Shown here one piece after another: positions 7,857 to 56,200 of a DNA stretch of 64,000 nucleotides. The notes under the pieces were generated by a model, which saw only the letters and a list, made by a program, of their open reading frames with translations, was not told the origin of the DNA and did not search any database. Source of the stretch: Cetorhinus maximus (lineage: Eukaryota); assembly GCF_964194155.1 (NCBI RefSeq), contig NC_135881.1, positions 16,368,001-16,432,000 on the forward strand. Reading direction: 5' to 3'. Both the position numbers and the translations under genes were made by a program. The first letter of the stretch is position 1. Each line of letters opens with the position of its first letter.

Positions 7857-8850
7857 CAATCTGAACCGGGTCAATCTGAATTGAGTCAATCTGAACTGAG
7901 TCAATTTGAACTGAGTCAATCTGAACTGAGTCAATCTGAATTGAGTCAGTCTGAATTTAGTCAATCTGAATTGAATCAATCTGAGTTGAGTCAATCTGAT
8001 CTGAGTCAGTCTGATCTGAGTCAATCTGAACTGAATCAATCTGAACTGAGTCAATCTGAACTGAGTCAATCTGAATTGAGTCAATCTGAACTGAGTCAAT
8101 CTAAATTGAGTCAATCTGAACAGTCTGAACTTAATCAATCTGAATTGAGCCAATCTGATCTGAGTCAATCTAAAATGAGTCAGTCTGAACTGAGTCAATC
8201 TGATCTGAGCCAATCTGAACTGAGTCAATCTGAACTGAGTCAATCTGAACTGAGTCAGTCTGAACTGAGTCAATCTGAACTGAGTCAATCTGATCTGAGC
8301 CAGTCTGATCTGAGTCAATCTGAACTGAGTCAATCTGATCTGAGCCAATCTGATCTGAGTCAATCTGATCTGAGTCAATCTGAACTGAGTCAATCTGAAC
8401 TGAGCCAATCTGATCTGAGTCAATCTGATCTGAGTCAATCTGAACTGAGTCAATCTGATCTGAGTCAATCTGAACTGAGTCAATCTGAACTGAGCCAATC
8501 TGATCTGAGTCAATCTGAACTGAGTCAATCTGATCTGAGCCAATCTGATCTGAGTCAATCTGATCTCAGTCAATCTGAACTGAGTCAATCTGAACTGAGT
8601 CAATCTGATCTGAGTCAATCTGAACTGAGTCAATCTGATCTGAGCCAATCTGAACTGAGTCAATCTGAACTGAGCCAATCTGAACTGAGCCAATCTGATC
8701 TGAGTCAGTCTGAACTGAGTCAATCTGAACTGAATCAATCTGAACTGAGCCAATCTAAACTGAGCCAATCTGATCTGAGTCAATCTGAACTGAGTCAATC
8801 TGATTTGAGTCAATCTGAACTGAGCCAGTCTGAACTGAATCAATCTGAGT
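7857..8850. repeat. 15-bp tandem repeat, about 65 copies (tctgaactgagtcaa, variants tctgatctgagYcaa)
   Basis: Direct tandem copies with a 5-bp sub-period; source of the (ELSQS)n and (QFRLT)n ORFs. Confidence 0.97.
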
Positions 8851-29420: not shown

Positions 29421-30486
29421 GACTGTACACCCAGATCCCTCTGCCGTTGATGCACTTAAGTGTTCTGCCATTTATTGTATAATTCCTGCCTGTATTAGAC
29501 CCTCCAAAAGTAACTTATGGCTCGACAGGGCTTTGGGATTGTGGTTGTGAATGGAGCTATATAATTTCTTTTTCCTTTAAAGGGAAATTGTTGCAATTTG
29601 AGAGGTTTTCTCATGGGGTTAAGGTTCAAATCAGCTATGCTCTAACTGAATGGCGGAGCAGGAGTCAACTATTTGGGGCAGCCGGTATTGAAAAGATGTT
29701 ATCTATCTCGACTCCTTAAAGCCCCAATGCACAAATCAAAACTCCAGTAACCGAAAGTCCTTTTCAACACAAAAAGGCAAACTGAGGTGGCCATGCTAAG
29801 AGTCTTGTCTATTTTTGCTTCTTTGCTGCAGACAGCTTAAGTAGCCCATAATCGTCACAGGGATGAAGGTAGCTGCCATCACCATAGCAACATGAGCTAA
29901 GGCGGTTGCTGCTGGTGAAAATTATTTCACGTGAGGCCTGCTCAGCCCTTTTCTGGTCAGATAAACAGGCCACATTCATGAGGAAAAAGCGCTACCGAGA
30001 GAGGGAGAGAGAGAGAGTGAGTGAGAGAGATCTGGAGAAACACATAACAAATGGTGAGAGGGCTGCAGCCACAAACTAGGCCTCAGTTGGAATTCTGAAC
30101 AAAGTGAATTTTGCACCTCTGTCTTCACGTCTTATGCTCAGTGTCTAAATTAAATTTGCACCATTACCCCTTTCTCGCCATTTCATCCCTCCGGCCTTCC
30201 ACCTTGTCACTCACCTTCCCTTCCATTCTCCCCGCCCCCCCCAACCCCGAAGAGGTATCCTTTGAAAAGTGTACTTTGGGGCAAAGTTCCTACTAGGATG
30301 AGCAGTGGTGTAGTCACCTGCTAGGTGCTCGCTCTGTGGTAAATGATATCGGCCTGCAGCCACGCAAAATAACTTAAAGGGACTGTGCTCTTAAAGGAAA
30401 CAATAATCGAATGTTAAAGGGAACACTGGGACCAGTGATGGTCTTGCTTATCATCTAGTCCATAAACAGATGATTGTTCTACTTAC

Positions 30487-30550
30487 CCAGCATCTGTGTT
30501 GTTTCCACAGAGTAAGGCGTCCTTTTTTCCCTCAATATAATAGTAGTTAT
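30487..30550 (-). CDS. SCN5A: Nav alpha exon: DI S5-P loop ((D)NYYYIEGKKDALLCGNNTDAG)
   Basis: Not in the ORF track; found by reading. DALLCGNxxDAG motif, acceptor tttag|AT, donor GG|gtaagt; 64 nt, the usual size of this SCN exon. Confidence 0.95.
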
Positions 30551-30699
30551 CTAAATGGTAACAAAATTAAAAATAGCATTAGTCTACAATAGTACTTGTT
30601 AGCTAGTGAGCAAAAAATGTCAAATAAACCTTTGGTTTGGTTTAAACTTTTGGTTGCAGCACTGAGGAGATTACAAAGATATGGAAGGTTGTAGGACTT

Positions 30700-30995
30700 T
30701 TTGCTCATTTGTTCATGGGATGTGGGCGTCGCTGGCTAGGCCAGCATTTATTGCCAATCCCTAGTTACCCTTGTTCAGAGGGCATTTTTAAGAGTCAACC
30801 ACATTGTTGTGGGTCTGGAGTCACATGTAGGCCAGACCAGGTAAGGACGGTAGATTTCCTTCCCTAAAGGACATTAATGAACCAGATGGGTTTTTACAAC
30901 AATCGACAACAGTTTCGTGGTCATCATCAGACTTTTAATCCCAGATTTTTATTGAATTCAAATTTCACCATCAGCCATGGTAGGATTTTAACCCG
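30700..30995 (-). mobile_element. HE1-like SINE
   Basis: Reverse complement of the element at 10660-11000. Confidence 0.82.
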
Positions 30996-31017
30996 GGGTG
31001 GGGGGATTGCAAAGAAT

Positions 31018-31753
31018 GGTTACAAAGACAGGGAGGGTTGTAGGGGCTGGAGGAGGTTACAGAGATAGGGAGGGTTGTAGGGCTGGAGGAGGTTACAAAG
31101 ACAGGGAAGGTTGTAGGGCTGGAGGAGGTTACAAAGACAGGGAGGGTTGTAGTACTGGAGGAGGTTACAGGGATAGGGAGGGTTGTAGGGCTGGAGTAGG
31201 TTACAAAGACAGGGAGGTTTGTAGGGCTGGAGGAGGTTACAGGGATAGGGAGGGTTGTAGGGTCTGGAGGAGGTTACAGAGATAGGGAGGGTTGTAGGGC
31301 TGGAGGAGGTTACAGGGATAGGGAGGGTTGTAGGGGCTGGAGGAGGTTACAGGGATAGGGAGGATTGTAGTGTTGGACGAGGTTACAGAGATAGGGAGGG
31401 TTGTAGGAGCTGGAGGAGGTTACAGAGATAGGGAGGGTTGTAGGGCTGGAGGAGGTTACAGAGATAGGGAGGATTGTAGTGCTGGAGGAGGTTACAGAGA
31501 TAGGGAGGGTTGTAGTGCTGGAGGAGGTTACAGAGACAGGGAGGGTTGTAGGAGCTGGAGGAGGTTACAGAGATAGGGAGGGTCGTAGGGCTGGAGGAGG
31601 TTACAGGGATAGGGAGGGTCATAGGGCTGGAGGAGGTTACAGGGATAGGGAGGGTTGTAGGGCTGGAGGAGGTTACAGAGAAAGGGAGGGTTGTAGGGCT
31701 GGAGGAGGTTACAGAGATAGGGAGGGTTGTAGGGCTGGAGGAGGTTACAAAGA
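31018..31753. repeat. 36-bp minisatellite, about 20 copies (ggttacagagatagggagggttgtagggctggagga)
   Basis: Direct tandem copies with occasional 37-bp units. Confidence 0.97.
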
Positions 31754-33078
31754 TTGAGACAGCAGTGGCTGTTTTCAACATGAAAGCAAGGTTGCTTAAT
31801 GAGTTCAGATATGATTCTTTCCCATTGCTGGTTTAAGAGAGGCTCTAACACTAATATGGTGGACAGAATGTCGTATACGGTCCCACTGGTATATAGTCCA
31901 TTCCCCATTAGTATCCTATTGTTTTTAAATTCTACTGCATCCCGAAATGAGATCAGCACGAGCGATGGGATTGGTGCGGAGTTTTCATTATAGACAAGAC
32001 AGTGGGTCTCCCTGAGCAGCATTAACTTTGATTTGAAACAGACTTGATTGCCTCGGAGTTTATAGCCGGATGATGCGTTTTGGAATACCAAATCCCAGCA
32101 CCAACCATAACGGAATGAGTGGGACTAGCTGAGTTGCTCTCGCAGTGAGCCAATGTCAACACAGAGAGCCAAATGGTCTCCTTCTATGTTGTAGCCATTC
32201 AATGATGCCAAAAGGCCATTGACCTGATCAAGCTTCCTCCACAGGCCTTGCACAATCTACCCTATCATGGTCTCTGCCCCATCTATTTACGGTCCTGTGG
32301 GCAAGTTCTGTCTGAGTACTCCCTGATCGCTAAAGGTAATCAATCTCCATCTCTTATTCAGCTCCATTAGACAAAAAAATCCAATGACTCACCTCCTCAC
32401 CCCAGGTAAAAGTTGCCTGTGGAGCCTCACTGGCTACGGTTAAAGACAGAACTTTAGTGTTGAAAGTAGTGGACTGCTCGCCCCTGGTTCATTACCCCAC
32501 TGAAGCAAGTGTGAACTGGGAAATGATAAGCTAGCGCTAGAAAATGAACACTAATGTTCCCAGGCTGGTCATTGTAAAAAATCCACCGGTTCACTAGTGC
32601 CCTTTGTGAGTGGCAGCCTGCCATACTCTGCCTGCATGTGACTCCAGACCCACACCATGTAGTTAACTCGAAATGTCCACAGGGATAGGCGGTAGACCCT
32701 GCCCTGCTATTGTTTTCCCACAGCCAAAGATCAAACTGTGAGAACACAGCCGACGTCTCGAGCTCCATTGGAAAGCGCCTGAAGATCTAAACCCCCTCAA
32801 TGTTACAAAAAACAGGAGAAAACTGTGGGCGAGGAGGGTCGTGGGGTCATAAGGTTACATTATTGACCTAGTAGAGATTCAATGATAGCAAACTTCACTC
32901 TTTACTACAATGGCTTCCTGAGGTATTCGAGGTACTTCACTAACTTGCTTCGTTACTACAAGAGGGTCTGGAGTGAGCTGTCCGACCACAATCCAGCCTG
33001 TAATTTTCATCTGTCTGTCAACCGGAACTATACTCCTGGTGGCTTCATATAATAGGAAACAAAACTGTTCAAACAAAC

Positions 33079-33428
33079 ATGAAGATGATGCACAATCGCT
33101 CTCGTGTCTCAATGAGCTGCTCGCAGCAGCGACCTGGGGGTTAGTCCTTCATCCCTGGCCACTCCAGGAGGGTTGGCCACCCTGATGGGCCTCCTATGAC
33201 GAGTGGCATCAATAGCGCAACTGCAGATGTGGCACGTCTAGACGCGTGGTAAGATAAAGAGTGCCGAGTGTTCAAGGGGCCGCCCAGCTCTCCCCTCAAC
33301 CTGCTCCCACACTGTCGAACAATCGTGGCAATGCTCGGATGCGAGGGGTGGGAGTCTTCACCCGCTACGCAAGGCTTGGCCATTTAACCACATTACCAGC
33401 GCCTATAGAACCCGATAAAGAGTCAACT
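33079..33428 (+). repeat. Left arm of long inverted repeat
   Basis: Reverse complement of 37439-37790; roughly 12-14 differences by manual comparison. Confidence 0.95.
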
Positions 33429-33514
33429 GTGGGTCAGTGAGTGTTGGGGGGTGGGGCGAGGTGGGGACAGGGGGCGGTGGAACAAGAGAAAGAGACTGGG
33501 GTAAGAAAAAGGTT

Positions 33515-33732
33515 CAAACAAAAACGGAAAATGCTGGAAAAACTCAGCAGGTCTGACAGCATCTGTGGAGAGAGAAACAGAGTTAACGTTTCGAGTCCGT
33601 ATAACTCTTCATTCAGAGCTCTGAAACACTGACTCTCTCTCTCTCACCACAGATGCTGTCAGACCTGCTGAGTTTTTCCAGCATTTTCTGTTTTTGTTTC
33701 AGATTTCCAGCATCTGCAGTATTTTGCTTTTA
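33515..33732. mobile_element. Palindromic pair of Penelope terminal repeats
   Basis: gaaaatgctggaaaaactcagcaggtctgacagcatctgtgg / ccacagatgctgtcagacctgctgagtttttccagcattttc; its end matches the Penelope terminus at 10430-10500. Confidence 0.8.
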
Positions 33733-33744
33733 AGACAAAGGTTG

Positions 33745-35335
33745 NNNNNNNNNNNNNNNNNNNNNNNNNNNNNNNNNNNNNNNNNNNNNNNNNNNNNNNN
33801 NNNNNNNNNNNNNNNNNNNNNNNNNNNNNNNNNNNNNNNNNNNNNNNNNNNNNNNNNNNNNNNNNNNNNNNNNNNNNNNNNNNNNNNNNNNNNNNNNNNN
33901 NNNNNNNNNNNNNGAGTGTGTGTCTGTCTGTNNNNNNNNNNNNNNNNNNNNNNNNNNNNNNNNNNNNNNNNNNNNNNNNNNNNNNNNNNNNNNNNNNNNN
34001 NNNNNNNNNNNNNNNNNNNNNNNNNNNNNNNNNNNNNNNNNNNNNNNNNNNNNNNNNNNNNNNNNNNNNNNNNNNNNNNNNNNNNNNNNNNNNNNNNNNN
34101 NNNNNNNNNNNNNNNNNNNNNNNNNNNNNNNNNNNNNNNNNNNNNNNNNNNNNNNNNNNNNNNNNNNNNNNNNNNNNNNNNNNNNNNNNNNNNNNNNNNN
34201 NNNNNNNNNNNNNNNNNNNNNGTGCCTGAGTGTGAGCATGTGTGAATGTATGCGAGTGTGTGTGTGAGTGTGTGTATGTATGTGAGTGTGTGTGTGTGTT
34301 TGTGTGTGGGTGCGAGTGTGTGCATGTATGTGTCTGTCTGTGTGTGAGCATGCGTGTTTGTGAGTGTCTGTGTGTGATTTTGTGTGTGTGTTTGTGTGTC
34401 TGTGTGTGTGTATGTGTGAGTGTGTGTTTGTGTTTNNNNNNNNNNNNNNNNNNNNNNNNNNNNNNNNNNNNNNNNNNNNNNNNNNNNNNNNNNNNNNNNN
34501 NNNNNNNNNNNNNNNNNNNNNNNNNNNNNNNNNNNNNNNNNNNNNNNNNNNNNNNNNNNNNNNNNNNNNNNNNNNNNNNNNNNNNNNNNNNNNNNNNNNN
34601 NNNNNNNNNNNNNNNNNNNNNNNNNNNNNNNNNNNNNNNNNNNNNNNNNNNNNNNNNNNNNNNNNNNNNNNNNNNNNNNNNNNNNNNNNNNNNNNNNNNN
34701 NNNNNNNNNNNNNNNNNNNNNNNNNNNNNNNNNNNNNNNNNNNNNNNNNNNNNNNNNNNNNNNNNNNNNNNNNNNNNNNNNNNNNNNNNNNNNNNNNNNN
34801 NNNNNNNNNNNNNNNNNNNNNNNNNNNNNNNNNNNNNNNNNNNNNNNNNNNNNNNNNNNNNNNNNNNNNNNNNNNNNNNNNNNNNNNNNNNNNNNNNNNN
34901 NNNNNNNNNNNNNNNNNNNNNNNNNNNNNNNNNNNNNNNNNNNNNNNNNNNNNNNNNNNNNNNNNNNNNNNNNNNNNNNNNNNNNNNNNNNNNNNNNNNN
35001 NNNNNNNNNNNNNNNNNNNNNNNNNNNNNNNNNNNNNNNNNNNNNNNNNNNNNNNNNNNNNNNNNNNNNNNNNNNNNNNNNNNNNNNNNNNNNNNNNNNN
35101 NNNNNNNNNNNNNNNNNNNNNNNNNNNNNNNNNNNNNNNNNNNNNNNNNNNNNNNNNNNNNNNNNNNNNNNNNNNNNNNNNNNNNNNNNNNNNNNNNNNN
35201 NNNNNNNNNNNNNNNNNNNNNNNNNNNNNNNNNNNNNNNNNNNNNNNNNNNNNNNNNNNNNNNNNNNNNNNNNNNNNNNNNNNNNNNNNNNNNNNNNNNN
35301 NNNNNNNNNNNNNNNNNNNNNNNNNNNNNNNNNNN
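33745..35335. repeat. Long degenerate (TG)n region, mostly N (33745-33913, 33932-34221, 34436-35335)
   Basis: All visible islands between the N runs are TG-rich. Confidence 0.75.
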
Positions 35336-35936
35336 GGCTTCAGTGTGTGTTGAACTGATAAGAAGCCACCTGTATTCTTCCGTCCACCATTTCAATAAAG
35401 AGAGGCCGATTAAGAAGGCCATAAGCATTTTGCCCTTGAACACAAAGACTTTTATTAAGGAAAATCCTGATGGGATTGACAGCATTTGACAATATTGGGA
35501 TAATCACAATATTGTGATATCTTTCCACAGGGAGCATGTAAGACACAATCAGCTTTGGAAACAGATTAGGAGCATTTTGATAAAGCTCAAGTTCAAGCGG
35601 TAATCCGTTTGATTTATCATACAGTTTTACTGATGGATGAGTAGGCATCATCTGATGCCAGTCCATGTGGATCAGTCCATTTATTTTTATACTCTGATTA
35701 AAGTTGCATTCTTCTGCAAGTATTCAGCTGAAATCAATGGTGTTTGGCAAGATGGACTGCTCTTTACAAAATGAAAAAAAAGATGTGATTGGATTTGCCT
35801 TTTAACGATCTGTACCGGGGAAGTTTGTTGAAGCAAATGTTGGCTTGTTAGAATTTCCATTTTTGCTGTTGTTACGTGTTGGGCTGTTAATCACAGTATT
35901 GCACTGGATCCAAATCAATTATTTGTTTTCTTTCTT

Positions 35937-36502
35937 CACACACACACAAACACGTACACATACACACACACACAGACACACACGCGTGTGCACACACACA
36001 GATGACACACACACGCNNNNNNNNNNNNNNNNNNNNNNNNNNNNNNNNNNNNNNNNNNNNNNNNNNNNNNNNNNNNNNNNNNNNNNNNNNNNNNNNNNNN
36101 NNNNNNNNNNNNNNNNNNNNNNNNNNNNNNNNNNNNNNNNNNNNNNNNNNNNNNNNNNNNNNNNNNNNNNNNNNNNNNNNNNNNNNNNNNNNNNNNNNNN
36201 NNNNNNNNNNNNNNNNNNNNNNNNNNNNNNNNNNNNNNNNNNNNNNNNNNNNNNNNNNNNNNNNNNNNNNNNNNNNNNNNNNNNNNNNNNNNNNNNNNNN
36301 NNNNNNNNNNNNNNNNNNNNNNNNNNNNNNNNNNNNNNNNNNNNNNNNNNNNNNNNNNNNNNNNNNNNNNNNNNNNNNNNNNNNNNNNNNNNNNNNNNNN
36401 NNNNNNNNNNNNNNNNNNNNNNNNNNNNNNNNNNNNNNNNNNNNNNNNNNNNNNNNNNNNNNNNNNNNNNNNNNNNNNNNNNNNNNNNNNNNNNNNNNNN
36501 NN
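35937..36502. repeat. (CA)n region running into N run 36017-36502
   Basis: Visible CA repeat at 35937-36016. Confidence 0.75.
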
Positions 36503-37438
36503 TGTGAACTCTGTTTTCAACAGTGATAACAGACAGGTAGACAGAGTGGACAGACATTTAAAAACAGTTGCAACTTCCAAAAGCATTTACTCCCCTTACA
36601 TAGGAAGATAGGAACAGGATATCCCAGAAGAAAAAACAGTTCAACATGTTCAAATGCTAGTAACAATCAGTAATACTGGCACCAGTAATACAGGAGTTCC
36701 ATTTTACAGTATACAAGACCAGTTCAGACAAGTTTTACAGGTACTATTCCATCCCACATTTTCCTGTGTTTTTCCTTCTGCGTAGGCCACTCAGCCCCTC
36801 AGGCACGTTACAGGCAGCTCTAAGCCAGAAAGGAAGAACCAGGAAAACTTGGGAAATGGCCGCTACTGCTCTGAACTGGAGTTCCATTTTTGGGGGTATA
36901 CAAGACCAGTTCAGACCAATACCAATCATTTCTCAAGTTTCCCTGTTTTTATTTCCTTCTTCTGGGTATGCAGGGTGTGGAAAATGATTCTTCCTATGTT
37001 GATTTTACTGGGGGTGCTGGGCGTGGTGGTGGGGGAGGTTAGGAGGGTTGGGCTATCCACATGGGGAGACATCTTAACACCCACCAGCAGTCAAAGCCAA
37101 TCCCTGGGTGAGTGCTTATGAAATGTCCCCTTTGCTTACAGTTGGAAAATCCTATCCTCGGCAACTTGCAGGCATTGTCCTCCGATCTTTGCAAGGAATG
37201 CAAATGCTTTGCTCTCACAGCGTTTGAAATGTCAATACAGGATGCCAAAGATCCTATTGTGTTGAGAGGGTGACCAGAAATAGCCCAGGCAATGGGAAGG
37301 AACTTCCAGCGGAGACAGAAACAAGCTAAATGCTTCTGTAAACAAGGCTTCTTTTTCAAATTTTGGTTCACCCTTTTTTTTAAACCCCCGATCGCTTTCT
37401 CTCGTCCCGCCCCTCACTCGCCGACCCACTCCAACGAG

Positions 37439-37790
37439 AGTTGACTCTTTATCGGGTTCTATAGGCGCTGGTAATGCGGTTAGATGGCCAAGCCTTGCGT
37501 AGCGGGTGAAGGCTCCTACCCCTCGCATCCGAGCATTGCCACGATTGTTCGACAGTGGGGCGGGGCAGGTTGAGGGGAGAGCTGAGCGGCCCCTTGAACA
37601 CTCAGTGCTCTTTATCTTTCCACGCGTCTAGACGTGCCATATCTGCAGTTGCGCTATTGATGCCACTTGTCATAGGAGGCCCATCAGGGTGGCCAACCCT
37701 CCTGGAGTGGCCAGGGATGAAGGACTAACCCCCAGGTCGCTGCTGCGAGCAGCTCATTGAGACACGAGAGCGATTGTGCATCATCTTCAT
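37439..37790 (-). repeat. Right arm of long inverted repeat
   Basis: Reverse complement of 33079-33428. Confidence 0.95.
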
Positions 37791-40573
37791 ATTCTTTGAG
37801 CAGTTTTATTACTTATTTATACAGGCCTTGAAGATGTGGAGGGTGGGTGGGTGGGTGGGGAATGCCTATTTTTTTCTGGGCAGGGTGCGAGGAGGTGGGA
37901 GGCCATGAGTCTCCAGGAATACCTCCAGCCATAGTTGGCAACCCCGTAGACATCTTCCCTCTGAAATCTATTCTCCATTGCTCACTTAAGTGAGCCTTTC
38001 AGGTTCGGAGATCTGATCCTAACAGCATTCTTGTCACCCTCCACTGAACTACCCCCGGAATCAATGGCCTTCTGAACATATGTGACCCAACGTTAAATAA
38101 TCGGAAAACATCGAAGGCAAGTGAAGGAATCGATAGATAGTCCATTGGAAAGGCCAGTCCAGTGGACAAACTGCCTTTGCTTGCACTATGATCTCTTGGA
38201 CTCTTGTGCTAGGAACGAGCATACGCACTTGAAAGATAACGGGGGAAGGGTACAGAGGGCAAGCCGAGCACAGAGCAGAAATGTCATTTATTGTTGCTTA
38301 GTTACCCTGTGATTGCTGCAAGCAAATCCTCTGTAAATATGAAATTTAATTTCAGTCAAGCATCCTGTTTGTTTTGGTAATATCAACATTTGGATGAAGT
38401 AAGCGTCTAACCCATATGCTGTGCATCCATTAGGAACAGGTTGGGGGTGGGGGTTGGGGTGGGAAGGGTAATCAGGATGTGGCAAATTATCCTTTGTGCA
38501 TTTGAGGCAAGAATTGATTGGGGAGAATTCTCAGGGCCTCCAAATTTGGCCTCACCTGTTTGTAAGATTGGGCACTTGTGACGCCTCCCTGTATCTATGG
38601 TTTTATTTGTGTTGGGGGGTTGGGGTGGGGGATAGGGTGGATTTGGAGCTCCACACAATTGGGGATTCCAGAGTCAACAGTGGCAATTTTTTTTCAACAA
38701 CTGGAGGGAAATTTTGTAAAACCCTCTCACCACCAATGCAGCCAGTGAGGGTCATGGTTCTGATGTCTGTGGTATTCTGGGCGTATGTGATGGAAGGTCA
38801 CAGGGATGATACTTAGGATTTTGCAATACGACATTTTAACACCTTTAACATAGTAAAATCTCCCAGAGCGTTATTAAGTGTAACCTGACACTGAGCCACA
38901 TAAGGGAATCTCAGGATGGGTGACCAAAAGTTGGGTTAGAGTTAGGTTTGTAAGGAGTGTCTCGAAGGAGGAGGGAGAGGGAGAGAGGAGGAGGTGGTAG
39001 GGTATGAATTGTGGAGCTTAGGTTCTAGGTAGTTGAAGGTACGGCTATGAATGGCAGAGTGAGGGAAATCAAGGGGCCGGAATTGGAGGAGTGCAGAGAT
39101 CTCGGAGGGGCTGTTGAGCTGGAGGAGGTTACAGAGACAGAGAGGGACAAGGCCAGGGAGGGGTTAGAAAACAAGGATGAGAGTTTTAAGTCCCCATCTG
39201 CTTTGTGTGAGACTCCACCAACAGTGCAGGATCTTACATTATTTCCTCCATGCAAGCAACACAAATCACTTCGAGTTCACAGTATCATCCATTAAAAAAG
39301 GACAACAGGCAGGTTAGGTCAAAAGGAAAGACGAGTGACAAACTGAACTTTGCTGAGTCAACAGGAGCTAAGCGAAGGATTAGACTTTCGAGCACTAGTT
39401 ATCAAAGTTAAAACTGCAGGTTGCAGGGGAATGGAGCCTGGGGATTCAGGGAAAAAGGTGCCTGAGATCATTCTTACCTTCCAGGTTGCCCTTACAATAT
39501 AGGAGAACGTGGCAGTGTAGAAGGAATAATATTATTGCTGGAGCTGGTCATGCTGGACAATAAATTATAAGCCCAGGCGGTGACCAAGGATAGTCTGCAG
39601 CCCACTGGTTTGAATCCTCAGAGACGAGTCTGCACATGGGAGGATAGTGGGGAATGGCAGAGGGTGAGGTCTGGTAGGCCCATCTTGGTCAAGGCATTGT
39701 GCAGCAGATTGACATGGGCTGCCGGAGAGGAACTTGGGAATTGAGGAGCAAGTTCATGAGGGTTGGACCTTTATTTCCAGGATGTGAGAGAACGAGAGGG
39801 GAATTAAAAAAAAAATTCTTGTTCTTTTCGTGGCCTCTCCTTGAAGAGTTTGGCTGAACAGCTAAGGTCATGCCAAGTGCAAGACATCACCGGGGCTGCA
39901 AAGAGTGGAACAGAATTGAAACCCCAACAGCAACATTTTGGCTGTCAGTTCCTCCCGCGCGAGTTTTCATCCAGCTCTCTTTTAAAATTATTGATGAAGT
40001 CAGCTTCCGCTGCCTGTTCAAATAGAACATTCCAGATGGTGACCGCTCTCTGGGTGAACAAGCAAAGCCGAAGTGAATAAGGACCTAGTGATTAGGTGAC
40101 ACTATTTTAAACACCTGTGGATTGTGGTAGACAGGGAAGACTGAGGTACCCTGCCATTTCAAAGCCTTGAGGAAGAAGAAATGAAGAATAGAACACTGTG
40201 TGATGAAGAGAAAAGGAGGAACTGTGTCTGCAACATAGGAGCTACAAGGGAGGAAGGGCCATAATAGTATTGATTAATAGAGACAATCAAAAAAATGGCT
40301 GTAACAGAGAGAGAGAGAGAGAGACAGAGAGACAAGAGTGATTACCCATCAGATCTGCACCCTGCTTGGGATTGTGAGATAGGTTTTCACTAGATAGGGG
40401 TATCAGGGGATATGGATATAAAGCGGATAAGAGGAGTCAAGGTACACATCAACCATGATATAATTGTATGGTGGAACTATCTCGGGGGTGGAACTTCCTC
40501 CTGTTTCTAATATCCCTGGAGATGTCAGAGGATTTTGAGTACACATTAATCAGTTAGGTGATCTGAGGCTTAC

Positions 40574-40810
40574 CTTTATCATTAATGAATTCTTCAAATG
40601 TAACGTTCCAAGGCCAGGTATAATTCTGTGTATCGTTCAGCATGACATCGCCAACGACACGCCAATCCCGCACACATTTCTGACGCAAGTTCCCCATGAA
40701 GAGCTGAAGCCCAATGAGTGCAAAGACACTTAAGCAGAACACAGTCAGGATCATGACGTCTGCTAGCTTCTTCACGGACTGTATCAGTGCACCCACAATG
40801 GTTTTCAGGC
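40574..40810 (-). CDS. SCN5A: Nav alpha exon: DI S4-S5 linker, S5 and start of extracellular loop ([48 protein letters not shown]...FINDK)
   Basis: Near-invariant Nav1 motif; acceptor ttgcag|GC, donor G|gtaagc; 237 nt, phase 1-1. Confidence 0.96.
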
Positions 40811-41501
40811 CTGCAAGTGAATAGTAAAAGGATTAGCTTGGTAGAGATAGAATGCAGTCAGTGCCATGGTATCAGGGCATCAGCTAAAGGTGACTGATTG
40901 TAGTGTTTCTTTTTTCTACTGTTTGATCATCCAGAGTTTAGACTTTGAGAAGGATAAGACTGAACAACTCTCGTTTTACTTACATAGAATTTAGAGTACA
41001 GATACAGGCCATTCAGCCCAAGTGGTCCGTGTTCAACACCCCCCCTCCCACCCTACTTCATCTAACCCGATCAACATCCCTTTCCATTCCTTTCTCCCTC
41101 ATACGTTTACATAGATTCCCCTGAAATGTATCAATGCCAGTCGCCTCATCCACTTCATGTGGTAGTGAGTTCCACATTCTCACCTTTCCCTGGCTAATGC
41201 TGGGAGGAGAGACTGACCAAAAAAAAGAGCAAATTGAAGTAGGAAATGCTGACTTCTTATAGATTCTCTCTCTAAGAATCTTTTCTTTCAAAAGAAGGAA
41301 AAGAGGGAAGATTCGTTTCGTGTGCCAAGTGTATCAAAACGTAACCCCATTTGGAAAGAAAGAGTTTACAATTGCACAATGCAACGCTTAAAGCGCCTTG
41401 CTAGGACCACTAGAAATAGAGCTGGGGCATGACAAGAATTGGAGACATCGAGATCAGCGAATTCAGGACAGGATGGATCTAAAGAGAAGAGGGAAGAGTT
41501 A

Positions 41502-45291: not shown

Positions 45292-45545
45292 GATAAAAGC
45301 AAAATACTGCAGATGCTGGAAATCTGAAACGAGAACAAAAAATTGCTGGAAAGACTCAGCGGGTCCGACAGCAGCCGTGGGGAGAGAGGCAGAATTAACG
45401 TTTCGAGTCCGTATGACTCTTCTTCAGAAGACAAATGCTCTGTGTTCTGAAAAAACTTCTGCAGAGGACTCGAAACGTTGACTCTGTCCTTCTCTCCACG
45501 GATGCTGTCAGACCCGTTGAGTTTTTTCCAGCAATTTTTGTTTTA
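45292..45545. mobile_element. Palindromic pair of Penelope terminal repeats
   Basis: ataaaagcaaaatactgcagatgctggaaatctgaaa terminus; arms ~45335-45410 and ~45466-45543 are inverted. Confidence 0.8.
45391..45432 (-). ncRNA. Minimal type I hammerhead ribozyme-like motif (Penelope-associated)
   Basis: CUGAAGA-A-GAGUC-AUACG-GACUC-GAAAC-GUU: core boxes, 5-bp helix II and palindromic AACGUU helix III; helix I is poor in this copy. Confidence 0.55.
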
Positions 45546-45753
45546 TGTTACAGGCTTACACCTCGTTTCCGTTGCTGGAACAGGTCGCTAAGGGGAAGCC
45601 AGAGGCTGTAGCTCGAGGGATGCCACTCTGCATTAAACCAGGAGTTTCTCCCACTCTTACTCCCTGCCATAGGCGTCTTGGAAGGGTTTGCAGGTTGACA
45701 ATCAACCTGTTAGGCTGCGCTATGTCTGTGCCTTTCACGGCCATCAAGTCTCA

Positions 45754-47227: not shown

Positions 47228-50200
47228 AATCAGAGCCCACTCTTTGAGTAATAGACGGCAATCTGACTCTGTGGCTGTTCTCTGAATTATAGCCCATACT
47301 CTAAATCAGAGTCCACTTCCTGAATTATAGCCTGCACTCTGAATATAGCCCACACATTGAATCAGAACCTGTTCTCTGAATTGTTGCCGGAACTCTGAAT
47401 TATAGCCCGCTCTCTGAATTAAAGCCTGCACACTGAATTGGAGCCCGCTCTCTGAATTATAGTCTGCACCTTCCATTGTAGCCCGTTCCCAGAATCAGAG
47501 CCCGCTCTCTGAATTATAGCCTGCACCCTGAATCAGAGCCCACTCTCTGAATTATAGCCTGCACCCTGAATCAGAGCCCACTCTCTGAATTATAGCCTGC
47601 ACCCTGAATCAGAGCCCACTCGCTAAATTTTAGCCCGCACTCTGAATTATAGCCTGCACTTTTAATTATAGCCTGCACACTGAATCAGAGCCCAATCTCT
47701 GAATTATACCCTGCACTTTGAATTAGAGCCGCACTCGGATTCAGAGTCTCTTCTCTGAATTATAGCCTGCACTTTGAATTATAGCCTGCACCTTCAATTG
47801 TAGCCCGTTCCCAGAATCAGAGCCCGCTCTCTGAATTATAGCCCGCTCTCTGAATTATAGCCTGCACCCTGAATCAGAGCCCGCTCTCTGAATTATAGCC
47901 CGCTCTCTGAATTATAGCCTACACCCTGAATCAGAGCCCGCTCTCTGAATTATTACCTGCACCTTCATTTGTAGCCCGCAGTCTAAATCAGAGCCCACTC
48001 TTTGAGTAATAGACGGCAATCTGACTCTGTGGCAGTTCTCTGAATTACAGCCCGCACTCTGAATTATAGCCTGCACTCTAAATCAGAGTCCACTTCCTGA
48101 ATTACAGCCTGCACTCTAAATCAGAGTCCATTTCCTGAATTATAGCCTGCACTCTGAATATAGCCCACACATTGAATCAGAGCCCACACTCAGAATTAGA
48201 GCCCGCACATTGAATCAGAGCCTGCTCTCTGAATTATTGCCGGAACTCTGAATTATAGCCCGCTCTCTGAATTATAGCCTGCACACTGAATTGGAGCCCG
48301 CTCTCTGAATTATAGCCTGCACCTTCAATTGTAGCCCGTTCCCAGAATCAGAGCCCGCTCTCTGAATTATAGCCTGCACCCTGAATCAGAGCCCACTCGC
48401 TAAATTTTAGCCCGCACTCTGAATTATAGCCTGCACTTTTAATTATAGCCTGCACACTGAATCAGAGCCCAATCTCTGAATTATACCCTGCACTTTGAAT
48501 TAGAGCCGCACTCGGATTCAGAGTCTCTTCTCTGAATTATAGCCTGCACCCTGAATCAGAGCCCGCTCTCTGAATTATAGCCTGCACCCTGAATCAGAGC
48601 CCACTGTCTGAATGATAACCCACACTCTGAATTAAAGCGTGCACCCTGAATCAGAGCCCTCTCTCTGAATTATAGCCTGCACCCTGAATCAGAGCCCTCT
48701 CTCTGAATTAAAGCCCGCACTCTGAATTATAGCCTGCACCCTGAATCAGAGCCCTCTCTCTGAATTATATCCTGCACCCTGAATCAGAGCCTGCTTTCTG
48801 AATCAGAGCCCTCTATCTGAATTTGGCCCGCAATCTGAATCTGAGCCCTCTCTCTGAATTATTGCCTGCACCCTGAATCAGAGCCCCATCTCTGAATTAT
48901 AGCCCACACTCTGAATTATAGCCTGCACCCTGAATCAGAGCCCGCTGTCTGAATTATAGCCTGCACTCTGAATTATAGCCTGCACCCTGAATCAGAGCTC
49001 GCTCTCTGAATGATAACCCACATTCTGAATTATAGCCTGCACCCTGAATCAGAGCCCTCTCTCTGAATTATAGCCTGCACCCTGAATCAGAGCCCAGTCT
49101 CTGAATCATAGCCCACACTCTGAATTATATCCTGCACCCTGAATCAGAGCCTGCACCCTGAATCAGAGCCCTCTATCTGAATTTGGCCCGCATTCTGAAT
49201 CAGAGCCCTCTCTCTGAATTATAGCCCGCAGCCTGAATCAGAGAACGCTCGCTGAATTATAGCCCGCACTCTGAATTATAGCCTGCACCATGAATCAGAG
49301 CCTGCTCCATGAATTATAGCCCGCACTCTGAATTATAGCCCGCAATCTGAATCAGCGCCCTCTCTCTGAATTATAGCCTGCACCCTGAATCAGAGCCTGC
49401 TCTCTGAATTATAGCCCGCACTCTGAATTATAACCTGCACCCAGAACCAGAGCCCTCTATCTGAATTATAGCCTGCACCCTGAATCAGAGCCCTCTCTCT
49501 GAATTATAGCCTGCACTCTGAATTATAGCCTGCACCCTGAATCAGAGCCCTCTCTCTGAAATATAGCCTGCACTTTGAATTATAACCTGCATCCTTAATC
49601 AGAGCCCGCTCTCTGAATTATAGTCTGCACCCTGAATCAGAGCTCACTCTCTGAATTATAGCCTGCACCTTGAATCAGAGCCCGCTCTCTGAATTATAGC
49701 CTGCACCTTCAATTGTAGCCCGCAGTCTAAATCAGAGCCCACTCTTTGAATAATTGTCGGCAATCTGACTCTGGCCGTTCTCTGATTTATATCCCGCACT
49801 CTGAATTATAGCCTGCACTCTGAATATAGCCCACACATTGAATCAGAGCCCACACTCAGAATTATAGCCCGCACATTGAATCATAGCCTGTTCTCTGAAT
49901 TATTGCCGGAACTCTGAATCAGAGCCCGCTTTCTGAATTAAAGCCTGCACTTTGAATTGTAGCACGCACACTGAATTGGAGCCCGCTCTCTGAATTATAG
50001 CCGGAACTCTGAATCAGAGCAAGCTCTCTGAATTATAGCAGGCAGTTTGAATTAAAGACCACACTCTAAATCAGAGCCCGATCTCTGGATCATAGCCTGC
50101 ACTTTTAATTATAGCCCGCACTCTGAATCAGAGCCCAATCTCTGAATTATAGCCTGCACCCTGAATCCGAGCCCTCTCTCTGAATTATAGCCCACACTCT

Positions 50201-53200
50201 GGATTATAGCCTGCACCCAGATTCAGAGCCCTCTCTCTGAATTATAGCCTGCACCCTGAATCAGAGCCCTCTCTCTTAATTATAGCCCTCTCTCTGAATT
50301 TTAGCCTGCACCATGAATCAGAGCCCTCTCTCTGAATTATAGCCCGCACTCTGAACTATACCCTGCACTCTGAATTATAGTCTGCACCCTGAATTAGAGC
50401 CCACTCTCTGAATCATAGCCTGCACCTTCAATTGTTGCCCGTAGCCTAAATTAGAGCCCATTCTTTGAATAATAGTCGGCAATCTGAATCAGTGCCCGTC
50501 CACTGAATTATAGCCTGCACCTGAATCAGAGCCCGCTCTCAGAATTATAGCCCGCACTCTGAATTATAGCCTACACCCTGAATCAGAGCCCGCTCTCTGA
50601 ATTATTGCCTGCACCCTGAATGAGAGCCCACTCTCTGAATTATAGCCCGCATTCTGAATTATAGCCTGCACCCTAAATCAGAGCCCTCTCTCTGAATTAT
50701 AGCCTGCAACCTGAATCAGAGACCTCTCTCTGAATTATAGCCGGCACTCTGAATTATAGTCCGCACTCTGAATTATAGCCTGCACCCTGAATCACAGTCC
50801 TCTCTCTGAATTATATCCCGCACTCTGAGTTATAGCCTGCACCCTGAATCAGAGCCCTCTCTCTGAATTATAGCCTGCAACCTGAATCAGAGCCCTCTCT
50901 CTGAATTATAGCCCGCACTCTGAATCAGAGCCCGCACTCTCAATTATAGCCCGCACTCTGAATCAGAGCCCTCTCTCTGAATTAAAGCCTGCACCCTGAA
51001 TCAAAGCCATCTCTCTGAATTATAGCCTGCACCCTGAATCAGAGACCTCTCTCTGAATTATAGCCTGCAACCTGAATCAGAGCCCTCTCTCTGAATTATA
51101 GCCCGCACTCTGAATCAGAGCCCGCACTCTCAATTATAGCCCGCACTCTGAATCAGAGCCCTCTCTCTGAATTATAGCCTGCACCCTGAATCAAAGCCAT
51201 CTCTCTGAATTATAGCCTGCACCCTGAATCAGAGACCTCTCTCTGAATTATAGCCCACACTCTGGATTATAGCCTGCACCCTGAATCAGAGCCCACTCTC
51301 TGAATTATAGCCCTCTCTCTGAATTTTAGCCTGCACCCTGAATCAGAGCCCGCTCTCTGAATTATAGCCCACACTCTGGATTATAGCCTGCACCCAGATT
51401 CAGAGCCCTCTCTCTGAATTATAGCCCGCACTCTGAATCAGAGCGCGCTCTCTGAACTATAGCCTGCACCCTTAATCAGACCGCGCTGTCTGAATTATAA
51501 CCTGCACCTTCATTTGTAGCCCGCAGTCTAAATCAGAGCCCACTCTTTGAGTAATAGACGGCAATCTGACTCTGTGGCTGTTCTCTGAATTATAGCCCAT
51601 ACTCTAAATCAGAGTCCACTTCCTGAATTATAGCCTGCACTCTGAATATAGCCCACACATTGAATCAGAACCTGTTCTCTGAATTGTTGCCGGAACTCTG
51701 AATTATAGCCCGCTCTCTGAATTAAAGCCTGCACACTGAATTGGAGCCCGCTCTCTGAATTATAGTCTGCACCTTCCATTGTAGCCCGTTCCCAGAATCA
51801 GAGCCCGCTCTCTGAATTATAGCCTGCACCCTGAATCAGAGCCCACTCTCTGAATTATAGCCTGCACCCTGAATCAGAGCCCACTCTCTGAATTATAGCC
51901 TGCACCCTGAATCAGAGCCCACTCTCTGAATTATAGCCTGCACCCTGAATCAGAGCCCACTCGCTAAATTTTAGCCCGCACTCTGAATTATAGCCTGCAC
52001 TTTTAATTATAGCCTGCACACTGAATCAGAGCCCAATCTCTGAATTATACCCTGCACTTTGAATTAGAGCCGCACTCGGATTCAGAGTCTCTTCTCTGAA
52101 TTATAGCCTGCACTTTGAATTATAGCCTGCACCTTCAATTGTAGCCCGTTCCCAGAATCAGAGCCCGCTCTCTGAATTATAGCCCGCTCTCTGAATTATA
52201 GCCTGCACCCTGAATCAGAGCCCGCTCTCTGAATTATAGCCCGCTCTCTGAATTATAGCCTGCACCCTGAATTATAGCCCGCTCTCTGAATCAGAGCCCG
52301 CTCTCTGAATTATAGCCTGCACCTTCAATTGTAGCCCGTTCCCAGAATCAGAGCCCGCTCTCTGAATTAAAGCCCGCACTCTGAATTATAGCCTGCACCC
52401 TGAATCAGAGCCCTCTCTCTGAATTATATCCTGCACCCTGAATCAGAGCCTGCTTTCTGAATCAGAGCCCTCTATCTGAATTTGGCCCGCAATCTGAATC
52501 TGAGCCCTCTCTCTGAATTATTGCCTGCACCCTGAATCAGAGCCCCATCTCTGAATTATAGCCCACACTCTGAATTATAGCCTGCACCCTGAATCAGAGC
52601 CCGCTGTCTGAATTATAGCCTGCACTCTGAATTATAGCCTGCACCCTGAATCAGAGCCCGCTCTCTGAATGATAACCCACATTCTGAATTATAGCCTGCA
52701 CCCTGAATCAGAGCCCAGTCTCTGAATCATAGCCCACACTCTGAATTATAGCCTGCACCCTGAATCAGAGCCCTCTCTCTGAATTATAGCCTGCACCCTG
52801 AATCAGAGCCGTCTCTCTGAATTATAGCCTGCACCCTGAATCAGAGCCCAGTCTCTGAATCATAGCCCACACTCTGAATTATAGCCTGCACCCTGAATCA
52901 GAGCCCTCTCTCTGAATTATATCCTGCACCCTGAATCAGAGCCTGCACCCTGAATCAGAGCCCTCTATCTGAATTTGGCCCGCATTCTGAATCAGAGCCC
53001 TCTCTCTGAATTATAGCCCTCTCTCTGAATTATAGCCCTCTCTCTGAATTATAGCCCGCAGCCTGAATCAGAGAACGCTCGCTGAATTATAGCCCGCACT
53101 CTGAATTATAGCCTGCACCATGAATCAGAGCCTGCTCCATGAATTATAGCCCGCACTCTGAATTATAGCCCGCAATCTGAATCAGCGCCCTCTCTCTGAA

Positions 53201-56200
53201 TTATAGCCTGCACCCTGAATCACAGCCCTCTCTCTGAATTATAGACTGCACCCTGAATCACAGCCCTCTCTCTGAATTATAGCCTGCACCCTGAATCAGA
53301 GCCCGCTCTCTGAATTATAGCCCGCACTCTGAATTATAACCTGCACCCAGAACCAGAGCCCTCTATCTGAATTATAGCCTGCACCCTGAATCAGAGCCCT
53401 CTCTCTGAATTATAGCCTGCACTCTGAATTATAGCCTGCACCCTGAATCAGAGCCCTCTCTCTGAAATATAGCCTGCACTTTGAATTATAACCTGCATCC
53501 TTAATCAGAGCCCGCTCTCTGAATTATAGTCTGCACCCTGAATCAGAGCTCACTCTCTGAATTATAGCCTGCACCCTGAATCAGAGCCCGCTCTCTGAAT
53601 TATAGCCTGCACCTTCAATTGTAGCCCGCAGTCTAAATCAGAGCCCACTCTTTGAATAATTGTCGGCAATCTGACTCTGGCCGTTCTCTGATTTATATCC
53701 CGCACTCTGAATTATAGCCTGCACTCTGAATATAGCCCACACATTGAATCAGAGCCCACACTCAGAATTATAGCCCGCACATTGAATCATAGCCTGTTCT
53801 CTGAATTATTGCCGGAACTCTGAATCAGAGCCCGCTTTCTGAATTAAAGCCTGCACTTTGAATTGTAGCACGCACACTGAATTGGAGCCTGCTCTCTGAA
53901 TTATAGCCGGAACTCTGAATCAGAGCAAGCTCTCTGAATTATAGCAGGCAGTTTGAATTAAAGACCACACTCTAAATCAGAGCCCGATCTCTGGATCATA
54001 GCCTGCACTTTTAATTATAGCCCGCACTCTGAATCAGAGCCCAATCTCTGAATTATAGCCTGCACCCTGAATCCGAGCCCTCTCTCTGAATTATAGCCCA
54101 CACTCTGGATTATAGCCTGCACCCAGATTCAGAGCCCTCTCTCTGAATTATAGCCTGCACCCTGAATCAGAGCCCTCTCTCTTAATTATAGCCCTCTCTC
54201 TGAATTTTAGCCTGCACCATGAATCAGAGCCCTCTCTCTGAATTATAGCCCGCACTCTGAACTATACCCTGCACTCTGAATTATAGTCTGCACCCTGAAT
54301 TAGAGCCCACTCTCTGAATCATAGCCTGCACCTTCAATTGTTGCCCGTAGCCTAAATTAGAGCCCATTCTTTGAATAATAGTCGGCAATCTGAATCAGTG
54401 CCCGTCCACTGAATTATAGCCTGCACCTGAATCAGAGCCCGCTCTCAGAATTATAGCCCGCACTCTGAATTATAGCCTACACCCTGAATCAGAGCCCGCT
54501 CTCTGAATTATTGCCTGCACCCTGAATGAGAGCCCACTCTCTGAATTATAGCCCGCATTCTGAATTATAGCCTGCACCCTAAATCAGAGCCCTCTCTCTG
54601 AATTATAGCCTGCAACCTGAATCAGAGCCCGCTCTCTGAATGATAACCCACATTCTGAATTATAGCCTGCACCCTGAATCAGAGCCCAGTCTCTGAATCA
54701 TAGCCCACACTCTGAATTATAGCCTGCACCCTGAATCAGAGCCCTCTCTCTGAATTATAGCCTGCACCCTGAATCAGAGCCGTCTCTCTGAATTATAGCC
54801 TGCACCCTGAATCAGAGCCCGCTCTCTGAATGATAACCCACATTCTGAATTATAGCCTGCACCCTGAATCAGAGCCCAGTCTCTGAATCATAGCCCACAC
54901 TCTGAATTATAGCCTGCACCCTGAATCAGAGCCCTCTCTCTGAATTATAGCCTGCACCCTGAATCAGAGCCGTCTCTCTGAATTATAGCCTGCACCCTGA
55001 ATCAGAGCCCAGTCTCTGAATCATAGCCCACACTCTGAATTATAGCCTGCACCCTGAATCAGAGCCCTCTCTCTGAATTATATCCTGCACCCTGAATCAG
55101 AGCCTGCACCCTGAATCAGAGCCCTCTATCTGAATTTGGCCCGCATTCTGAATCAGAGCCCTCTCTCTGAATTATAGCCCTCTCTCTGAATTATAGCCCT
55201 CTCTCTGAATTATAGCCCGCAGCCTGAATCAGAGAACGCTCGCTGAATTATAGCCCGCACTCTGAATTATAGCCTGCACCATGAATCAGAGCCTGCTCCA
55301 TGAATTATAGCCCGCACTCTGAATTATAGCCCGCAATCTGAATCAGCGCCCTCTCTCTGAATTATAGCCTGCACCCTGAATCACAGCCCTCTCTCTGAAT
55401 TATAGACTGCACCCTGAATCACAGCCCTCTCTCTGAATTATAGCCTGCACCCTGAATCAGAGCCCGCTCTCTGAATTATAGCCCGCACTCTGAATTATAA
55501 CCTGCACCCAGAACCAGAGCCCTCTATCTGAATTATAGCCTGCACCCTGAATCAGAGCCCTCTCTCTGAATTATAGCCTGCACTCTGAATTATAGCCTGC
55601 ACCCTGAATCAGAGCCCTCTCTCTGAAATATAGCCTGCACTTTGAATTATAACCTGCATCCTTAATCAGAGCCCGCTCTCTGAATTATAGTCTGCACCCT
55701 GAATCAGAGCTCACTCTCTGAATTATAGCCTGCACCCTGAATCAGAGCCCGCTCTCTGAATTATAGCCTGCACCTTCAATTGTAGCCCGCAGTCTAAATC
55801 AGAGCCCACTCTTTGAATAATTGTCGGCAATCTGACTCTGGCCGTTCTCTGATTTATATCCCGCACTCTGAATTATAGCCTGCACTCTGAATATAGCCCA
55901 CACATTGAATCAGAGCCCACACTCAGAATTATAGCCCGCACATTGAATCATAGCCTGTTCTCTGAATTATTGCCGGAACTCTGAATCAGAGCCCGCTTTC
56001 TGAATTAAAGCCTGCACTTTGAATTGTAGCACGCACACTGAATTGGAGCCTGCTCTCTGAATTATAGCCGGAACTCTGAATCAGAGCAAGCTCTCTGAAT
56101 TATAGCAGGCAGTTTGAATTAAAGACCACACTCTAAATCAGAGCCCGATCTCTGGATCATAGCCTGCACTTTTAATTATAGCCCGCACTCTGAATCAGAG

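Follow-up and report, generated by a model that had tools for sequence, protein, structure and literature searches.

The 64,000-nt stretch of Cetorhinus maximus DNA analysed here (the window) contains, inside a single intron, two mirror-image arms of about 350 nt that lie about 4 kb apart and form a fold-back of about 4.8 kb. The question raised by this locus is how the cores of two inverted copies come to be nearly identical when their edges are far less alike. In our assessment it is highly probable that the fold-back is an inverted duplication, present in two copies within one intron, that predates the split of three species, and that its core has been homogenised in each lineage, most likely by arm-to-arm conversion, with no constraint on the sequence.

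Gene context

An SCN5A-like gene holds the whole fold-back in a single intron of 10 kb. The Nav DI S5 exon (40574..40810, minus strand; best solved-structure match Nav1.5) lies upstream of this intron and a 64-nt Nav DI loop exon (30487..30550, minus strand) downstream, and these positions confirm the location given in the first-pass annotation. Searches with the three adjacent channel exons found no copy of them between the arms or elsewhere in the intron (best E 0.09); a novel cryptic exon may lie inside the intron. Microsatellites excepted, the inside of the fold-back shows only short ORFs. A search of 30000-41000 against Rfam gave no match on the arms and seven weak matches elsewhere, none of them close to its cut-off.

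Structure and repeats

The left core arm (33079..33428, plus strand) comprises 350 nt with a GC content of 56% and 19 CpG, and the right core arm (37439..37790, minus strand; 352 nt) is its reverse complement. When aligned, the two are 95.7% complementary, with 15 differences in 352 columns (13 substitutions and one 2-nt gap), and exactly identical over 122 nt at the outer end of the core (33079-33200), in agreement with the roughly 96% and 120 bp first reported. The weaker homology described outward and for about 90 bp inward was also recovered: the left outer edge (33040..33078, plus strand) matches the right outer edge (37791..37826, minus strand) in 27 of 36 columns, and the left inner edge (33429..33520, plus strand) matches the right inner edge (37364..37438, minus strand) in 59 of 83. 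Neither score was reached in 300 shuffles, compared with 37 of 300 for a control stretch. Similarity between the arms is thus 71-75% at the edges versus 95.7% in the core; in the far outer stretch (32850-33040) it is not significant (score reached by 26 of 300 shuffles). A background of 1,047,000 bases (713,189 after tandem-repeat masking) was sampled non-randomly and gained nothing from one all-satellite block of 100 kb or from the upstream 200 kb (183 kb masked). In this sample the fold-back showed the highest identity among 65 inverted pairs (at least 150 nt, within 10 kb), and among the 37 pairs within 5 kb it alone had an exact run of at least 60 nt. The similarity of the arms is not of chance origin.

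The right side holds an old, dispersed, MITE-like repeat (37685..37944) that has short inverted termini and is complete there only; on the left no more than its last 120 nt or so can be recognised (33051-33168). It is 58-85% similar to dispersed copies, among them L015 (65% over 37701-37942) and L090 (58%), and both of its ends match L003 and L012. The outer 90 nt or so of the core are part of this repeat, and the core then runs on into 260 nt of two-copy DNA. The earlier statement that the arm matches none of the other repeats recognised in the sequence needs correcting for the outer part, where the segment from 33051 to about 33168 forms the terminus of the MITE-like repeat. A very high-copy palindromic repeat unrelated to the arms (33516..33732; contig depth 1e4-1e7 in four runs) is inserted in the left inner edge.

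Between the arms, a degenerate (TG)n tract of about 1.6 kb (33745..35335, plus strand) faces a degenerate (CA)n tract of about 0.58 kb (35937..36502, plus strand), so that the opposed blocks described earlier are real. Runs of N had been taken as assembly gaps; since the genome's own copy of the stretch contains zero N, the tracts are not gaps. The central spacer (35336..35936) is single-copy, with one match in the genome, and a copy of a second dispersed repeat (36620..36960; 1157 candidates, the best 39 others at 79-88%) is present on the right inside only. The spacer ends beside the tracts show a weak inverted similarity, noted post hoc (60 nt: score reached by 6 of 1000 shuffles; 100 nt: by 39 of 874 real segments). 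A reading of the whole spacer as a decayed palindrome found no support (over 309 nt, score reached by 485 of 1000 shuffles), nor did a specific kinship of the (CA)n and (TG)n tracts: their share of variant 12-mers was 0.30 versus 0.07-0.26 for seven other tracts and their local score 82 versus up to 118.

Copy number and raw-data support

The copy-number check proposed in the first-pass annotation was carried out on the 4-Gb genome. A DNA search with the arm returned both arms and one 55-nt match at 82%, the inner 350 nt used as query gave two matches, and an arm 25-mer with up to 2 mismatches allowed also gave 2, whereas a true repeat 600 nt away, serving as positive control, returned 1157 candidates. 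The arm is thus present in two copies genome-wide.

Could the arms be the long terminal inverted repeats (TIRs) of a DNA transposon 4.7 kb in length, or did members of a single repeat family insert twice in opposite orientation, as had been offered as alternatives? Size and layout fit, and a dispersed repeat does account for the outermost 90 nt of the core. However, the core has no further genomic copies, the similarity extends past both core ends, and the core crosses from the end of the MITE-like repeat into the 260 nt of two-copy DNA, a stretch that two separate insertions would not have in common. There is no direct target duplication at 33078/37791, and what lies inside is microsatellite sequence, a single-copy spacer of 600 nt and repeats of other kinds. 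Both versions are rejected on the two-copy count, the lack of a target duplication and the similarity past the core ends, and we regard them as very improbable.

In contigs from raw data of the same species, the flanks have a depth of 8.7-13.4 and the identical 122 nt a depth of 23.5 (2.2x); a bubble holds both arm versions at depths of 14.7 and 10, and all four flank junctions are present. (The run used, X1, is possibly the sample from which the assembly was made.) Either a recent duplication or an artefact of assembly would fit the near-identity of the arms and the long internal microsatellites, which are hard to assemble, but has next to no probability in view of these contigs, the gap-free genome copy and, provided that the relatives' contigs are correctly assigned, the presence of both arms in two further species that are about 7% diverged. 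With two genomic copies and both versions at two-copy depth, the arm is neither a young high-copy repeat nor an artefact, the two outcomes that had been named as fatal to the original interpretation.

Comparison with two related species

In short-read contigs of two relatives, C and D, both arms are found at the same flanks as here. Relative C has separate contigs for both outer flanks and the right inner flank and one merged arm contig (depth 28.1) with the same outer edge (33079/37793), in which the inner part of the arm is uncovered. In relative D, contig X10 links the left outer flank with the arm, and contig X12 links the right inner flank, the arm and 28 nt of the right outer flank. Contigs of a further organism, B (X5), do not reach the arm and carry no information on it. 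These merged contigs lose variants, as did the own-species run, in which a 4-SNP bubble was dropped, and they cannot phase the arms; the variants considered were those listed for the relatives (40 of 119 and 40 of 69).

Seven substitutions (33109, 33116, 33122, 33147, 33178, 33225 and 33264) are shared by both arms here, with another state in C and D, and the same applies to two 1-nt insertions; the lineage that gained each change is unpolarised. Among the rows listed (40 of 69), the right-linked contig of D also shows the other state at six of the seven substitutions and both insertions. Its arm contig is not elevated in depth (3.91 versus 4.1-5), so that the merger in D rests on shared alleles and not on depth. 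Regarding relative C, a depth model with nine sites private to one arm leaves 22% of 31-mers common, compared with about 57% implied by the depth. Four alleles found in C only (33193, 33246, 33269 and 33280) were not counted as homogenised because the depth of C fits their being private to one arm (55% versus 57%).

The divergence between species is 7.5% in the arm (18 of 241) and 7.7% in the flank (39 of 509; p=1.0), and a second arm-versus-flank comparison gave 14 of 231 versus 14 of 205 (p=0.85). The GC direction of changes was 6:1 in the arm versus 17:19 in the flanks (p=0.10, among the rows listed and unpolarised). Lineage-specific states common to both arms, together with divergence at the flank rate, amount to concerted evolution without sequence constraint. 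The duplication is older than speciation, both copies occupying orthologous places in the relatives; lineage-specific changes are common to the paralogues, as read from unphased contigs; orthologous divergence is not reduced, and paralogous divergence is higher at the edges. The main proposal of the first-pass annotation, that gene conversion between the arms has kept an old inverted duplication homogeneous, gains support from these cross-species contigs.

Selection for RNA pairing

Alternatively, complementarity of the arms might be maintained because a long pre-mRNA duplex is selected for, as a splicing aid or ADAR target, with conversion merely the tool. Both arms are contained in a single intron, on the strand that is transcribed, their duplex is predicted at -736 kcal/mol (a value without shuffle control), a second UG/CA stem could form inside, and the inverted pair persists across three species. 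Functional intronic RNA pairings are reported for SCN genes (ISRE1/ISRE2, 10.1101/2025.08.16.670673), and long near-perfect intronic duplexes are described as generally depleted (PMC7006430), so that persistence runs counter to the trend. Nevertheless, the arm evolves no slower than its flanks, and the 11 transition mismatches on the pre-mRNA comprise 3 G-U and 8 A-C (p=0.23). The distances from the arms to the splice sites are 2.5 and 2.8 kb, and no channel exon falls between the arms. The three paralogous Nav blocks contain no inverted pair of more than 85% identity within 12 kb, and the known SCN elements sit in another intron and are conserved across vertebrates. Selection for pairing is therefore unsupported, given the flank-rate arm and the lack of G-U enrichment, and we consider it improbable. 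Selection favouring fixed conversions may nevertheless act at the arms. From the original interpretation as a whole, the old duplication under conversion and the position in the gene were retained, selection for pairing found no support, TIRs and opposed insertions were rejected, and ADAR editing and intron looping stand as putative effects.

Proposed origin and upkeep

Under the preferred reading of an old duplication under conversion, the right-hand locus, holding the whole MITE-like repeat, would have been duplicated in inverted orientation 4 kb away, the extent copied being at least 33040-33520 and perhaps reaching the (TG)n tract. The arms would then pair as the 4-kb inside loops out, and a break in one arm would be repaired with the other as template. 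Edges would be converted less often and drift apart, and the block that is alike would narrow; a high core with diverged edges is the pattern published for old duplicates under conversion (PMC2588116). At 122 nt, the longest stretch of perfect identity falls short of the 200-456 nt cited for efficient recombination (PMC3966225). The only mutation rate available, 7e-10 per generation (PMC10587355), comes from another species. As by-products, the pre-mRNA could form a long duplex, a potential ADAR substrate, and a crossover in place of conversion would flip the inside and leave the exons untouched.

Such crossovers could also be the main route of homogenisation, by recurrent flipping of the 4-kb inside and a flip/flop polymorphism. 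Recurrent inversions driven by such repeats are reported for humans (PMC3961182) and for yeast, whose arms are homogenised within species (PMC9731477), and the exons here would stay intact; yet the published cases considered have arms of kilobase length, and in the present data there is no direct sign of flipping, no joint being reported on the right arm in contigs that cannot phase orientation across identical arms. We give this reading very little credence, although it is not exclusive of the conversion account; conversion and crossover-driven homogenisation cannot be told apart from the present contigs.

On the present evidence the fold-back is a clean case of a known process, gene conversion in junk DNA, with cross-species support and no function attributed to it. 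It also shows that near-identical inverted arms in these genomes are no guide to the age of an event and no proof of function. In a partial coverage of the literature, no work was found that deals with this locus or with short inverted repeats undergoing conversion in sharks. A broader proposal, which we put forward tentatively and hold to be rather unlikely, is that a 350-nt non-coding pair, whose size and run length are at or under the level taken as necessary for efficient recombination, is kept converting across several species by the slow mutation rate of these fishes or by the stem of nested (TG)n/(CA)n tracts. Such fold-backs would then be general in shark genomes and would sustain long, edited dsRNA stems as well as intron segments able to flip, the cardiac sodium channel being one of the genes concerned. 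Should short inverted pairs that keep converting for a long time prove widespread, they would allow the lower size limit of ectopic conversion to be measured in a slowly mutating vertebrate, and would allow a test of whether opposed (TG)n/(CA)n tracts help.

Comparison with known systems

Arm-to-arm conversion in the X/Y palindromes is GC-biased and acts on longer arms, which are more than 99% alike, compared with 95.7% in the fold-back. Gamma-globin is reportedly an example of (TG)n conversion, and FLNA-EMD is said to be one of inversion.

ISRE1/ISRE2 (10.1101/2025.08.16.670673) resemble the arms in being complementary elements in a sodium-channel intron. ADAR substrates of the inverted-Alu type (PMC7006430) are likewise inverted pairs of about 300-350 nt, a few kb apart, with a long predicted duplex; in contrast, the fold-back is not two insertions of a mobile family and is more alike than most pairs. 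In human inverted-repeat inversions (PMC3961182) exchange between arms also keeps the copies similar, but the arms are longer. The flip/flop inverted repeats of Saccharomyces chromosome XIV (PMC9731477) share with the fold-back two copies, homogenisation within species and divergence between them, whereas their arms are 4 kb long and gene-bearing, with inversion demonstrated, and those of the fold-back are about one tenth of that length. Duplicated blocks of Drosophila under interlocus conversion (PMC2588116) are alike in that the duplication is older than speciation, the paralogues are closer within than between species, and an identical middle is bounded by divergent edges; unlike them, the fold-back is non-coding, 350 nt in size, inverted and confined to an intron, with no gene duplicated.

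Structure and frequency of the inverted repeat

The left arm (33079-33428, forward strand) and the right arm (37439-37790, reverse strand) are 95.7% identical, differing in a 352-column alignment by 13 substitutions and a single 2-nt gap, and their outermost 122 nt are without a difference, much as the first-pass annotation had described them (about 96% identity, identical outer 120 bp or so). The lower-identity homology that it placed beyond the arms was recovered over about 36 columns outward (27 alike) and about 83 columns inward (59 alike), scores reached in 0 of 300 shuffles each (37 of 300 for a control stretch); farther outward, beyond the edge at about 36 columns, arm similarity was not significant (26 of 300 shuffles). 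The opposed blocks inside the fold-back were also confirmed, as degenerate tracts of (TG)n (about 1.6 kb) and (CA)n (about 0.58 kb) separated by 0.6 kb. The spacer ends adjoining them show a weak inverted likeness; in this post hoc comparison the score was matched by 6 of 1000 shuffles for 60 nt and by 39 of 874 real segments for 100 nt. There is a hint that the tracts might stem from the same old duplication as the arms; shared variant words did not confirm this common origin.

The background sample comprised 1,047,000 bases (713,189 unmasked) from the window neighbours, paralogues of the voltage-gated sodium channel (Nav) and four arbitrary blocks. Among the 65 inverted pairs that it contains at spacings of up to 10 kb, the arms have the highest identity. 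Eight pairs reached at least 85%, five of them from multi-copy families whose distant copies are just as close; the arms were the sole pair above 90% without another partner. Neighbouring long TG/CA tract pairs at most 5 kb apart occurred 9 times in 1,007,000 bases, that of the fold-back being the only opposed one. An entire 100-kb block with a 426-bp satellite (G000:C1:50000001-50100000, L078-L087, in the genome searched) is masked as tandem repeat.

Copy number and origin

Searched with the arm, the 3.99-Gb genome returned both arms and one 55-nt match. The inner part of the arm gave two matches, as did a 25-mer with up to 2 mismatches allowed. Because the search passes over frequent words, a neighbouring dispersed repeat served as positive control and gave 1157 candidates. 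In raw-data contigs of the same organism the flanks have a depth of 8.7-13.4 and the identical 122 nt one of 23.5, a bubble holds both arm versions, and a palindromic repeat adjoining the left arm reaches a depth of about 1e7. A young high-copy repeat is excluded by the two genome copies and the two-copy contig depth, and an assembly artefact at N runs by the bubble and by the genome's copy of the fold-back, which contains 0 N.

The annotation's statement that the arm matches no other repeat holds for 260 nt, which are two-copy DNA, and fails for the outer part, where the sequence is one terminus of an old dispersed repeat, complete on the right (about 37685-37944) and truncated on the left. 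Two opposed insertions of one repeat are ruled out because independent insertions would not have the 260-nt flank in common; the arms therefore arose by duplication within the locus, the right one probably being the template for the left.

The palindromic repeat next to the left arm (33516-33732) has 77-nt arms at 91% and more copies in the window near 45294-45553, 28431 and 10448; its copy number is very high in each of the four runs compared. At 36624-36960 lies a dispersed repeat, part of which is duplicated internally; its unit also forms a tandem array in L031:7970-8305.

Comparison with related species

In organisms C and D, two related species seen as short-read contigs, the locus is present at about 7% divergence from the window. 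At 33109, 33116, 33122, 33147, 33178, 33225 and 33264 and at two 1-nt insertions the window arms agree and C and D differ (among the differences listed, 40 of the 119 rows in one table and 40 of the 69 in the other), a comparison limited, like all those of the C and D arms, by contigs that lose bubbles and cannot phase the arms. In D, one contig of run X10 joins the left outer flank to the arm, and one of run X12 extends from the right inner flank through the arm and 28 nt into the right outer flank; among the differences listed, this right-linked contig carries at least 6 of the 7 substitutions and both insertions. The depth of the X12 arm contig is not raised, and X10 appears one inserted base longer than X12.

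The single arm contig of C, which does not cover the inner arm part, starts at the same outer edge as the window arms and has a depth of 28.1 (left outer flank, 16.3; right outer and inner flanks, 17.8-20.6). Nine sites private to one arm would leave 22% of 31-mers shared, whereas the depth implies about 57%; with only the four C-only alleles (33193, 33246, 33269, 33280) private, 55% would be shared. Because this one-arm state fits the depth, the four are not counted as homogenised. At the sequence level, lineage changes common to both arms show homogenisation of the core, as expected from the annotation's old inverted duplication with arm-to-arm gene conversion. In D, two inner contigs are alike about 16 nt farther inward than the window arms, which fits edge erosion in the window lineage.

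Selection for pairing, the annotation's other suggestion, is not borne out. Against C, the left arm differs at 18 of 241 sites (flanks 39 of 509, p=1.0) and the right at 14 of 231 (flanks 14 of 205, p=0.85); judged by divergence, there is no constraint on arm sequence. On the pre-mRNA, 11 transition mismatches are 3 G-U and 8 A-C (p=0.23). Unpolarised changes hint at a GC bias, with 6:1 in the arm vs 17:19 in the flanks (p=0.10). In the three paralogous Nav blocks, no inverted pairs spaced up to 12 kb apart exceeded 85% identity. The arms are predicted to form a long pre-mRNA duplex (-736 kcal/mol), which would incidentally provide ADAR with a substrate.

Host gene and intron

The host is a Nav gene on the minus strand. 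Its domain I (DI) S5 exon (40574-40810, minus strand) scores best against Nav1.5 and the next exon, of 64 nt, lies at 30487-30550 (minus strand); both arms therefore share a single intron of 10 kb, between the DI S5 and DI loop exons as annotated, with 2.8 and 2.5 kb separating them from its ends. No copies of neighbouring channel exons were found within this intron. Three further Nav loci exist (C11, C26, C40). The gene is likely SCN5A-like by that score, synteny not proving it. Its first exons were not found on the host contig, C3, so transcription through the intron is presumed.

The S3-S4 exon has 7 matches in the genome, 0 of them on C3. Contig C74 (971 kb) carries, close to its end, an orphan 5' Nav exon set (G000:C74:947496-950753, L122) with a second, decayed S3-S4 copy bearing 2 TGA; the last 25.8 kb of the contig lack the three following exons. 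This set may be the missing 5' part, separated by satellite, or the gene may be rearranged. Upstream of the S5 exon, at a distance of 6.4 kb, begins a 19-bp satellite with shifting unit variants (window 47228-64000; G000:C3:16432001 to at least 17010000). It takes up 183 kb of the 200 kb that follow and four more tiles of 10 kb as far as 17.01 Mb, and probably spans at least 600 kb within or across the preceding intron. Other introns hold minisatellites at 3700-4169 (36 bp), 7857-8848 (15 bp) and 31018-31754 (36 bp). In the C40 and C11 paralogues the S3-S4 exon is duplicated in tandem, with about 190 nt between the copies (L070:6685-7004, L072:422-721); only a single S3-S4 exon was found in the C26 paralogue. 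Downstream of the gene, 6.09-kb units of 98.3% identity (G000:C3:16202537-16220789, L021-L023) take the first and third places in an apparent three-unit tandem array.

Mechanism and comparison with known systems

Very probably the fold-back is an inverted duplication of long standing, in which gene conversion between the arms rewrites the core while the edges decay. The arms would pair by looping, conversion being the putative route of homogenisation, and the (TG)n and (CA)n tracts may assist; the available part of PMC3966225 mentions alternating purine-pyrimidine tracts close to conversion events. Against the figures quoted there for recombination (about 92% identity and 200-456 nt), the core is short (350 nt at 95.7%, perfect run 122 nt). 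By analogy with the accessible part of PMC3961182, it is possible that the inside of the fold-back flips. No paper on this locus was found in the literature searched, of which coverage was partial. The process of core conversion is itself already known: in the portions available, Drosophila duplicates (PMC2588116) likewise have a converted core and decaying edges, and a yeast inverted repeat (PMC9731477) is likewise described as converted arm to arm.
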